Shown piece by piece: positions 8,867-22,901 of a stretch of DNA of 64,000 bases. Source of the DNA: an uncultured Planctomycetota bacterium. Lineage in GTDB: Bacteria > Planctomycetota > Planctomycetia > Isosphaerales > Isosphaeraceae. Made by a program: the position numbers and the translations under genes. The notes under the pieces are model-generated. The model was not told where the DNA came from, did no database searches, and worked only from the letters and a program-made list of their open reading frames with translations. Each line of letters opens with the position of its first letter. Position 1 is the first letter of the stretch. The stretch spans positions 96,001 through 160,000 of the forward strand of contig CAWJTV010000036.1 of NCBI GenBank assembly GCA_963845755.1. The letters are read 5' to 3'.

Positions 8867-11800
8867 ATGCCGCTGTACTCGGGACGCTATGCTCAGATCC
8901 TCGAGGAAGAACAGGATCCGGAACGATTCATCCGCCGCTTCCTGGCCGTGCTGGAAGCCGACCTGCGTGAGACCGCGCTCCTGGGACTCGCGGCCTGGCA
9001 TCAGGCGAGTCTCCCGAAGGAGCAGTGGCAGGCCGCCTTGCCGAACCTCTTCAAGGCCATCGCCGGCCTGCAGAAGCCCGCGTACGGGCACTGGAACGGC
9101 CTGCTCTATTCGCTCCGGGACGCGTTGAGGCTGGCACAACCGGCGCCGGGTTCCCCGTCGGACGCGAATGCGCCGTGGATGCTGGAAGCGATCCTCGCCT
9201 GGCTCCGGGAGCCGACCGAGCCGCTGGTGGCCGCGGCCCTTCGGGGCATGTCCCAGCCGCTGGGCTACTCGCTGCCGGGTGATCTCAGCCGATGGCACGC
9301 GATCAGCCTGACGGTTTGCCTGCGGAACCGGATCGCGCACGAGCATCCGGTGGACGCCTGGTGGGCGGCCATGGCCCCGGGAGTGATTCGGCTGGCGTCC
9401 AGCCTGGCCGCCCTTCCCCCCTGCCTCGATTCGGGTCGGTTGGTCTATCCGAGCCCGTGGTTCCTCCAGCGCGAGGGCGTCCTTTATGCCTTCGGCGGGA
9501 TCCAGGGGGATGACGTGATCTACGCCGCGCCTGGGCTCGCCGCGGTGCGCCTGCCGGCGACCCAGACAGAGATCGTCCGGGCGTTCCAGCACGCCCTCGG
9601 CCAGGCGGAAATCCAGCAGGCGGCGTTCCGGGAGATGCTCTCGAAGCTGGCCCCCGAGGAGATCCGGGGCGTGTTGCTCGGCGACTTCCTCCTGGGTCCT
9701 CCGGTCGCCCAGGGCGGGTTCGCGGTCGTGCACAAGGGCTATCAGCTCAGCACGCAGCGGAAGGCCGCCCTCAAGGTCTTCCCCGACGCGTTGACGGAGT
9801 CGAAACGCGCGCTCATGCGGAAGGAGGCGACCCATCTGGGGGCGTTCAACACCCCCGAGATCGTCCGCCTGATCGGGCTCTATGAGAACGTCCCCTGGGT
9901 GATGCCGGCTGATATCAGCCTGTCCGCGGAACCCTGGTTCCGGACCTACAAGAAGACGTCGCCCTTCAAGACCTTCCTGGCGATGGAGTGGGTGGACGGC
10001 GAGAAGCTCGATGATCTGTATCGACGGCCCGCCGCCGCGGCGCCGGCGATCCCCGTCCTGGTGGAGTGGTTCGCGACGGCCGCCGAGGCGCTGGCGAAGG
10101 TGCACGCCCATCCCGGCGGCCTGATCCATCGCGACGTCACGCCGAACAACCTGATGGTGACCGTCAACGGGCAGCTCAAGCTGATGGACTTCGGCATCGG
10201 CGCGGAGGAGCCGAGCGGCGCGACCTGGTGACGCGAACCCAGCTCGGCGTGGGCACTCCGGCCTACATGGCACCCGAGCAGCTCGACGAGGTCTGGACCG
10301 ACCGGTCCGACGTGTATGCCCTGTGCGCGACGTTCTACGAGTTGTTCGCAAGAAAGCGGTTGTACGACCACGATCGCTCGGACATGGCTACCGTCAACAA
10401 GAAGAAGCGCGACGGCGATCCACCGGATTCGCCGCGGCGCGGCAATCCCGAGGTCCCCTGGGAGATCGACACCCTGCTCCTGGGCAGCCTTCGGAAGGAA
10501 CCGGAGCTGCGTCCGGCGAGCCGTGAGCTGGCCGATGACCTGCGCCGGGTTCAGGCCAATCAGCCGATCCACTACAAACGGCCGCCATTTCGGCGACGGA
10601 CGGCCTTGTGGTATCGGAGGAACCGCACGGCGGTGAGGGCCGCCCTCGCCGCCTGCGTCCTCCTCGGCGGCCTCTCGACGGTCCTCGGCATGCTCTGGTT
10701 GGGAGAGCAGCGTCGGTCCACCCAGATGACGAGTCAGGTGGGGGGCCTCAAGCAGGCGGTCGATGTGAGCGAGCGGCTGGCCGAGGAGCGATCGAAGGAA
10801 GCGGCGCTGCGCAAGGGGCGCGAGCTTCGCACACGCTACCTGATCGAGGTCAAGGACGCCTACAAGGCCTGGGAGGCGAATCATCCCGATGAGGCGCGAG
10901 TGCTGCTCGACCGGCTGGTGCCCGCGAACACCGGGGGGCCCGACCTGAGGGAGGTCGAGTGGTATTACCTCGACTATGTGCTGAGCGCCACCAGCCGCGA
11001 GCTGAATTTTGGTGGCCAGGTGCACGCCGTCCGCTTCAGCCCCGACGGGAAACGTCTCGCCGCATTGGGGATTGCCGACGACGACTCTTACTGCGTCAAT
11101 CTCTGGGAGTCTCCCGGGTTCAGGCACGAGCGAACGCTGGTGCTCGAGCCCAAGGCGACCTCCGGGAACATTTCGCCAGTGCGCAGTGCGCTCGTCGGCC
11201 CGGAAAACCTGGCCTTTAGCCAGAAGGGATCGCTGCTGGCGGTCACGTATGGATTCCGGCAGAAGACCCGAATCGACGGCATCGTCAAGGTCTGGGAATG
11301 CGACACCGGCAGACAGGTCTTTTCTGCCTCCGACGCCGGTATCGCGGGTGGGGCGGTGCTCTTCAGCCCGGACGGCCGGTACCTGATCGCCGGCGGATAC
11401 AACAACGCGGCCCTGGTCTGGGATCTCCCGGGCGGAAGCCTGCGATGGACCCTGCCGGGCTACGACTCGAGCGGAGTCGTCGGTACGCCTTCGGCCGTTG
11501 CGCACAAGATCGCGCGCCCCGTATTGAACTCGGCAGTCGGGCTCGAGGCTGACGTACGATTGATGCCCTCGGTGAAAGACGTCAGTGAGATCCCGAGACA
11601 GGGCAAAGACCTGCTCATCGTGGCTGAGGTGGATCACGTGCTGCATTTCCGCATATTCAACCGCGCTGGCTACCTGGCCGGGAACAATTTTGAGAGCAGG
11701 CTGCCGTACCGAGCCCGGCAAATCGAGGATCTCCGGAAGCAACTTGTGGACTTGTGGCCTCCTCACCAGCTTACCGAAAGCGAAAAGGGCCGGGTCATCA

Positions 11801-21400: not shown

Positions 21401-22901
21401 GAGATGCTCACGCTCAAGGGACACGGTAAATCTGTCGATGGGCGTGGCGTTCAGCCCCGACGGACGGCGCATCGCCTCCGCCAGCTGGGATAAGACGGTG
21501 ATGGTCTGGGACGCTCGTTCTGGAGATTTGTCGCTTACGTTCAGGGATCACACTGATCGCGTCACTGGCGTGGCATTCAGCCCCGACGGGCAATACATCG
21601 CCTCCGCCAGCGGCGAGACGATGAAGGTCTGGGACGCTGGCTCTGGAGAGGTGTCGCTCACGCTATCTGATCATACTGATCGAGTCTCTCGTGTAGCATT
21701 CGCTCCCGACGGCCGTCGCATCGCCTCCTTCAGCGGCGAGACGGTGAGGGTCTGGGACGCCGGCATTGGCGGCGACGAGGATGAATGACGCTCAAGGGAC
21801 ACACCGGCTGGGTCCTGGGCGTGGCCTTCAGCCCCGACGGGCGGTCGCATCGCATCGGTCAGCTTCGATGGAACTGTGAGGTCTGGGATGCCGGCTCTGG
21901 ACTGGAGGCGCTCACGCTCAGGGGGCACACCGACATCGTCAAGGGCGTGGCATACAGCCCGGATGGCCAGCGGATCGCCTCCGCCAGCTTTGACGGGACG
22001 GTGAAGGTCTGGGACGCCGAATCCGGCCAGGAGGCACTCACCTCAAGGGACATGACCTCCTCGTCTGAGATGTGGCCTTCAGCCCCGACGGGGACCGCAT
22101 TGCATCCGCTGGCTTCGACGGGACGGTGAAGGTCTGGGACGCCGGGACCGGACGGGTGATGCTCACGCTCCCCAGGCAAGAGAACGTCTGGAGCGTGCAT
22201 TCAGCCCGACGGGCGTCGAATCGCCTTCGCTAGCGCCGATGGGATGGTGAAGGTCTGGGATGCCGGATCCGGACCAGGAGATGCTCACGCTCGAAGGACA
22301 CACCGCGGAGTCAGGGGCGTGGCGTACAGCCCCGACGGACGGCGCATCGCCTCCGGCAATCAGGACGCGACCGTCGTGATTTGGGAAGTCGGGTCCGGAC
22401 AGGTGCGCGCACGTTCAAGGGACAGGGCTACGTGAAGCTGTGGTGTACAGCCCCGAGGGGCGGCGTATCGCCTCCGGAAACGAGGACGGGACCGTCGTGA
22501 TCTGGGACGCCGGCTCCGGCCAGGAGACGCTCACGCTCAAGGGGCACACCAAGGTCGTCACCGGCGTGGCGTACAGCCCAGACGGGCGACTGCATCACCT
22601 CAGGCAGCGAGGATCGGACTGTGAGAGTCTGGGACGCCACCTCCGGAACGCGGTGCTCACGCTCACCGGACACACCGACGACGTCATGTGCGTGGCGTTC
22701 AGCCCCGACGGACGGCGCATTGCCTCCGCCAGTTGGGATCATACCGTCAAGGTCTGGGACGCCACCTCCGGGCACGAAGCGTTGACGCTCAAGGCACATG
22801 CCGGGCGCGTCAATGCCGTAACCTTCAGCCCCGACGGGTGGCGCATCGCCACAGCGAACTGGGACAAGACAGTGAAGGTCTGGGATGCCCGGGACAAGTG
22901 A
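18487..22901 (+). CDS. HEPN-like domain - Ser/Thr kinase - hydrophobic helix - WD40 protein (no. 3, paralog of no. 2); more than 10 frameshifts (assembly error or pseudogene)
   Basis: [22 protein letters not shown]...LWEAAIK...YRN(H)ELGHG across a frameshift at ~18952; [29 protein letters not shown]; many similar WD40 repeats ending VKVWDARDK*. Confidence 0.8.

Follow-up and report, generated by a model that had tools for sequence, protein, structure and literature searches.

Closest described systems and the three predicted receptor genes

Single-chain proteins that couple a membrane sensor to a protein kinase and a HEPN nuclease are known from eukaryotes (Ire1, RNase L), and Ire1 runs in the order sensor, transmembrane (TM) helix, kinase and KEN nuclease. 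We describe three tandem genes with the same kinds of parts in a 64,000-nucleotide stretch of DNA (the window) from an uncultured planctomycete of the Isosphaeraceae (GenBank assembly GCA_963845755.1, contig CAWJTV010000036.1, positions 96,001 to 160,000). They belong to a real, large and unannotated family with the order HEPN(-OB), kinase, TM helix and ectodomain, a new architecture made of known kinds of parts, whose members are most likely receptor-controlled ribonucleases.

Bacterial inner-membrane proteins with a cytoplasmic HEPN domain have already been likened to Ire1, with RNA degradation upon a surface stimulus proposed and one planctomycete example given (PMC3710099). In the passages of that paper drawn on here, these proteins form three groups, none of which has a protein kinase or a WD40 or TPR ectodomain, unlike the family in the window; KEN is the only kinase fusion in its Table 1 and is presented as eukaryotic, with no specific prokaryotic relative. 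Swt1-like bacterial proteins in the same passages likewise combine HEPN and OB, together with a STAND ATPase and TPR (the OB domain being of the S1/OB kind), and two relatives of our genes carry an AAA_35 ATPase, but in the Swt1-like proteins OB lies C-terminal to the ATPase and there is neither kinase nor TM helix. Common among Planctomycetota are Ser/Thr kinases that cross the membrane once and carry WD40 or TPR arrays predicted to lie in the periplasm (PMC11032199); these have the same kinase-TM-WD40/TPR chassis and predicted topology as our proteins, and the main text of that paper, in the parts used, mentions neither HEPN nor a nuclease. Passages of PMC8195603, PMC11090510 and 10.64898/2026.10.19.760177 contain no HEPN-kinase fusion, and a literature search on such fusions, with most subscription journals and nearly all supplements outside its scope, found no description, though the family may already stand in the supplementary table of an earlier paper.

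The three genes form a tandem array on the + strand. They are separated by 350-430 bases and are not taken as a single operon because these gaps contain dispersed repeats. Pfam matched a kinase and WD40 repeats in each gene and left the N-terminal 270-340 residues without a match. All three kinases are of the Hanks receptor type, with catalytic Lys, HRD (HRDVTPNN in gene 1) and DxG motifs, and each is followed by a single strongly hydrophobic helix with basic residues ahead (Kyte-Doolittle 19-mer means 2.1, 2.7 and 2.15, called from hydropathy) and then by the WD40 region. The succession of kinase, hydrophobic helix and WD40 array put forward in a prior sequence-only reading was thus borne out in each gene, and the hydropathy and catalytic motifs support both its receptor topology and an active-looking kinase.

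Conserved motifs and predicted fold of the N-terminal module

That reading had assigned the region ahead of each kinase to HEPN from two short motifs. Both are present: LEADLR, WEATIR and WEAAIK occur in the three N-terminal regions, and exact translation gives RNRIAH at 9323-9340 and RNRELGH at 14174-14194, while gene 3 has RN and HELGH across two frames. We rejected the motif alone as evidence, since 57% of 4149 random 190-residue windows from neighbouring proteins contain Rx4-6H, and 13% contain R[NDH]x3-5H. Judged from alignments, its conservation in homologues is nevertheless beyond chance. We aligned the 255 best-scoring relatives of gene 2 (rows with fewer than 200 model positions dropped, one protein contributing three rows, 256 rows in total; sampled pairwise identity median 54%, minimum 36%) and found R154 kept in 255 rows, H160 and E44 in 254 each, K/R48 in 252 and N155 in 250, with R, E and H among the four best-kept columns. 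In 29 rows of distant relatives from other genomes of the phylum (28 loci, 20-37% identical, fragments included), E and R were each kept in 27, H in 26 and N in 25. Gene 1 represents a second subfamily, in which E30, R34, R153, N154 and H158 are invariant in 15/15 relatives; profile comparison aligns both of its motifs in register with the gene-2 family (E 3e-5, probability 73%). The preset test of R and H conservation was therefore passed in all three alignments. The passages of PMC3710099 used here describe catalytic HEPN domains by Rx4-6H, in which a polar residue follows R, together with Ex3[KR]; the conservation in both subfamilies fits this pattern.

The predicted structure of the gene 2 domain places E44xxxR48 on a long second helix and R154-N155-H160 where the third core helix ends, with an ~80-residue insert carrying RPxxGxW. 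R-[N/D/H]-x3-5-H at the end of helix 3 and an upstream Ex3[KR] are the marks of the HEPN superfamily, and helix order and motif positions agree with its canonical description. Of the 50 top rows listed by structure comparison, 24 were HEPN domains, among them 10 of the first 11, at modest Z; four of the 24 are ones that we take to be HEPN. They include HepT toxin, LsoA, Csm6, RnlA and AbiV, and KEN structures were absent from these 50 rows. The predicted fold is thus closest to HEPN bundles, as had been proposed.

Other searches gave nothing significant. Foldseek of the module against the PDB had no match at E <=0.001, two MtlR-family HEPN structures standing at ranks 2 and 8 of one search without significance. 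Pfam gave no match to the window's N-terminal domains at E up to 10; among 14 scanned relatives the best HEPN match was below the cut-off (HEPN_MAE_28990, E 0.05), and one relative had weak HEPN matches at the motif (E 0.05-0.06). HEPN_Swt1 matched neither the window domains nor the scanned relatives, and PADLOC, NCBIfam and PDB sequences yielded nothing significant. ESM Atlas returned unnamed clusters only (0.91-0.93), and scanning species genomes with a pattern detected no relative, the alignment being too diverse for this approach.

We conclude that the N-terminal domain, as modelled, very probably has a HEPN fold, and its activity as an RNase, which in this superfamily is endonucleolytic and independent of metal, is a prediction in which we have good though lesser confidence. 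Were it an unrelated helical bundle, the R/N/H motif would be structural or protein-binding and the likeness a matter of common helix arrangement; we consider this very unlikely, given that the top rows come from many unrelated HEPN families, that both signature motifs fall on the expected helices, and that the polar residues are kept better than the hydrophobic core. The region of 250-350 residues ahead of each kinase is accordingly present as first described, though not as a single unit: genes 2 and 3 have a HEPN-like and an OB-like domain, whereas gene 1 has a shorter beta part after its HEPN-like domain. In the gene 2 model the OB-like barrel is likely to bind nucleic acid.

Family anatomy, proposed mechanism and rival explanations

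Among representatives at 50% identity, a search with the gene-2 module gives 1145 relatives at E <=0.001 and 284 at E <=1e-30, which carry only the annotation 'serine/threonine kinase' because Pfam does not see the module. A kinase is present in 240 of 255 gene-2-type proteins. In 216 full-length relatives the hydrophobic helix directly follows the kinase in 212, and the catalytic Lys (VAxK) is present in 215, HRDxKPxN in 207 and DxG in 204; two activation-segment threonines are almost invariant in gene-2-type kinases. Ectodomains are WD40 in 95 and of other kinds in 121 (for example TPR, PDZ, caspase-like and sulfatase-modifying domains), so that WD40, taken at first as part of every receptor, does not define the family. 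Conservation is 0.75 in HEPN, 0.73 in the kinase and 0.44 in the region after the TM helix. A tree of 101 kinase domains places 38 gene-2-type kinases together in a single clade (support 0.994), separate from 59 other kinases sampled from this genome, and we therefore regard the HEPN-kinase fusion as old and stable. The four gene-1-type kinases in the tree group by themselves, with no support for a link between this group and the gene-2-type clade.

The HEPN-OB module also occurs without a kinase, joined to TM-DUF4384 in this genome and elsewhere to TM-caspase-like, TIR and AAA_35 domains (TIR and AAA_35 from a domain scan of 33 proteins). The kinase-free copy in this genome (contig C22, 171486-173382, - strand, one frameshift) is 88% identical to gene 2, and a TPR-CHAT protease gene adjoins it downstream; HEPN seems to take the place of the kinase or anti-sigma head of a DUF4384/CHAT module there. 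Over 250 codons, gene 2 and this copy differ by 42 synonymous and 30 non-synonymous changes, which is consistent with purifying selection. Protein P0001 (1412 residues, no kinase) carries the HEPN-OB module three times in tandem, the motifs being altered in two of the copies, and has a more distant fourth module.

The family thus resembles Ire1 and RNase L in that a single polypeptide unites a sensor with a protein kinase and a HEPN-type nuclease, and in its R-N-x-H motif; with Ire1 it also shares a single TM helix and, by prediction, the cytoplasmic placing of kinase and nuclease. The order is reversed, however, as HEPN-OB-kinase-TM-sensor, with an OB-like domain between nuclease and kinase. 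KEN lies directly C-terminal to its kinase and is switched on when the sensor drives the kinase module to dimerise, as would also be the case in our model; in all three genes HEPN is N-terminal and a TM helix follows the kinase. We rejected homology with Ire1/RNase L because of this reversal, and from the sequence-only comparison we retain the parts and the logic but not common descent, the nuclease being N-terminal, the sensor C-terminal and KEN missing from the 50 structural rows listed. The family is likely a convergent, independently built bacterial counterpart of Ire1. If this is true, the design arose twice, a subset of the many orphan Planctomycetota receptor kinases gains a concrete output, and the idea put forward in 2013, that a stimulus triggers breakdown of RNA at the membrane of bacteria, becomes directly testable.

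On balance we favour a model in which the outer domain controls the cytoplasmic HEPN domain through clustering and kinase autophosphorylation. The N-terminus is predicted to be cytoplasmic and the WD40/TPR array periplasmic, from hydropathy, the basic residues before the helix and the topology published for the class. A surface or periplasmic ligand would cluster the receptors, and the kinases, which have RD motifs, would trans-autophosphorylate their activation-segment threonines, stabilising the cluster. The R-N-x3-4-H motifs of two HEPN domains would then join as one active site; in characterised HEPN nucleases the active site needs two motifs brought together by dimerisation, according to passages of 10.1101/760058. 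The adjoining OB-like barrel may help to grip RNA, plausibly tRNA or mRNA at the membrane, and, in the weakest step of the model, translation would fall and the cell slow or turn dormant upon an outside threat or stress. Different ectodomains on tandem copies would provide several inputs to one output. More tentatively, and with rather more doubt than belief, a large family of receptor kinase-ribonucleases resembling Ire1 may have arisen independently in Planctomycetes, with swappable periplasmic sensors that convert an outside signal into phosphorylation-gated RNA cleavage; its two subfamilies may pair into mixed active sites, and the result would be a combinatorial network that links the surface to RNA for signalling or cell death.

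The kinase could also act as a brake on an active HEPN RNase, with basal autophosphorylation silencing it and ligand, ectodomain proteolysis or kinase inhibition releasing it. No antitoxin gene was found by Pfam among the flanking genes covered, so inhibition would probably be internal; HEPN toxins can be silenced by modification, row 3 of the structure comparison being an AMPylated one, and kinase-free versions adjoin or are fused to caspase-like proteases. Such versions with an intact motif would nevertheless have to stay silent without a kinase, which control by clustering explains better, and a brake would call for a conserved phospho-acceptor in HEPN; we think it unlikely. An equally small chance attaches to HEPN-OB as the input, binding or slowly turning over RNA or a cyclic oligonucleotide and thereby regulating the kinase, whose phosphorylation of other proteins would be the true output. 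The RNA-binding HEPN of Roquin supplies the top structural rows, an OB-like barrel adjoins HEPN, the module also precedes TIR, itself an effector, and two modules of P0001 have altered motifs. Yet E, R, N and H are near-invariant in two subfamilies, as in catalytic HEPNs, and HEPN is the sole recognisable cytoplasmic domain of the kinase-free TM-DUF4384 and TM-caspase-like proteins.

Gene integrity, distribution and neighbourhood

Table 1 Features of the three tandem genes in the window.
Feature	Position	Strand	Basis or remark
Gene 1, whole: HEPN-like (second subfamily), short beta region, Ser/Thr kinase, TM, degenerate WD40 array	8867..13362	+	Pfam; relatives
Gene 1 HEPN-like domain	8867..9430	+	E30xxxR34 at 8954-8968, RNRIAH; profile match to gene-2 family
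Gene 1 kinase, split by frameshift	9690..10560, approximate	+	AALK, HRDVTPNN, DFG, GTPAYMAPEQ
Gene 1 predicted TM helix	10639..10701	+	Hydropathy 2.11, basic residues ahead
Gene 2, whole: HEPN, OB-like, kinase, TM, coiled stalk, 14 WD40 repeats	13715..18057	+	Pfam; intact relative
Gene 2 HEPN domain	13730..14290	+	Predicted structure (pLDDT 94.5); alignment
Gene 2 OB-like beta barrel, residues 193-270	14291..14524	+	Then small beta/alpha linker to ~14740
Gene 2 Hanks-type kinase	14798..15770	+	Pfam; catalytic motifs; activation segment with two Thr
Gene 2 predicted TM helix	15860..15916	+	Hydropathy 2.73, RRHK ahead
Gene 2 WD40 array, 14 repeats	16160..18030	+	Pfam; predicted periplasmic by analogy with PMC11032199
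Gene 3, whole: architecture as gene 2, at least 12 WD40 repeats	18487..22901	+	Pfam; relatives
Gene 3 RN/HELGH motif spanning 1-base frameshift	18946..18967	+	RN closes one frame, HELGH resumes in the next at ~18951-18953
Gene 3 predicted TM helix	20608..20682	+	Hydropathy 2.15

The window comes from a 14.3-Mb assembly in 49 contigs, and part of the stretch is present in one sequencing run, a soil metagenome; no RNA data set containing it was listed, which has no bearing on expression. None of the genes is a single open frame as assembled (1, 2 and ~15 frameshifts in genes 1, 2 and 3); frameshifts are frequent throughout, 42 of ~270 kinase-like loci using more than one frame. HEPN heads were found on three of the ~270 loci. 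The two 1-base frameshifts of gene 2, at 16302 and 17083, are most likely assembly errors, because independent low-depth contigs lack one base there (one contig each, depth 2.5-2.8) and because the alignment with the intact 1420-residue relative P0002, 80-88% identical along the gene, breaks exactly there. Its WD40 array would form two 7-blade propellers. Gene 1, shifted near 10201-10231, is collinear with the intact relative P0121; Thr replaces the usual Lys in its catalytic loop, and its WD40 region is degenerate with long inserts. One ~95-residue non-WD40 insert lies at 11540-11830 within the propeller region and may be a mobile domain, since the DNA at ~11550-11830 has similar copies elsewhere in the genome and in relatives. 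Gene 3 is 57% identical to gene 2 across the first 153 residues and is either poorly assembled or a pseudogene: read mapping gave no near-identical contigs bridging its ~15 frame switches, and in relatives sharing 75-92% identity the motif RNxExGH is intact.

The closest named relatives of the three proteins are labelled Isosphaeraceae, Gemmataceae and Pirellulales. Family matches occurred in 2 of 41 related genomes; across 401 genomes of the phylum the gene-2 type occurred in 26 (own genome counted) and the gene-1 type in nine, one marginal. Each of the seven further genomes in which the gene-1 type was clearly matched (G097, G127, G136, G195, G252, G298, G316) also has the gene-2 type, which 25 genomes besides this one carry; the co-occurrence spans five families, with kin not independent and general kinase richness uncontrolled. 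G136 has six gene-1-type matches, and tandem pairs recur in two further genomes. No nucleotidyltransferase antitoxin, phosphatase, restriction or CRISPR gene was found by Pfam among 68 of 166 flanking open reading frames at 20 loci. We rejected a conserved operon or defence island because neighbours are not conserved among loci, and the genes do not belong to a known anti-phage system by PADLOC match of their N-terminal modules or by a conserved defence operon. The purpose may be anti-phage defence, a response to contact or envelope stress, or the regulated processing of RNA. For the suggested defence or programmed death the signs are mixed: patchy occurrence and the TIR, caspase and AAA fusions lean towards conflict, while the absence of defence-island or antitoxin neighbours, together with slow domain evolution, leans towards signalling.

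Synteny comparison with the same-genus genome G001 matched repeats and WD40/kinase fragments only. Three intergenic elements, at 8578-8735, 13383-13505 and 18171-18360, have many copies in this genome and in G001; the first and last have long inverted arms (36 and 47 bases, respectively), and the elements resemble miniature mobile or REP-type sequences. The kinases are flanked on either side (2076-8424 and 25840-32229) by genes for a GAF-cyclase, multiheme cytochrome c, TPR-cyclase, cNMP-binding 4Fe-4S and NuoE/F-like proteins, and cyclase genes adjoin two further family loci too. Convergent with gene 3, an intact 751-residue gene (23012-25267, - strand) encodes a Ser/Thr kinase with a DHH-like phosphoesterase region (PF01368, E 0.03); it is conserved in G012 at 74% DNA identity. 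In the window it lies downstream of a TPR-cyclase gene and cNMP-binding Fe-S genes. A large non-ribosomal peptide synthetase cluster with many frameshifts and a thioesterase-carbamoyltransferase fusion at its end occupies 39906-63900 (- strand).
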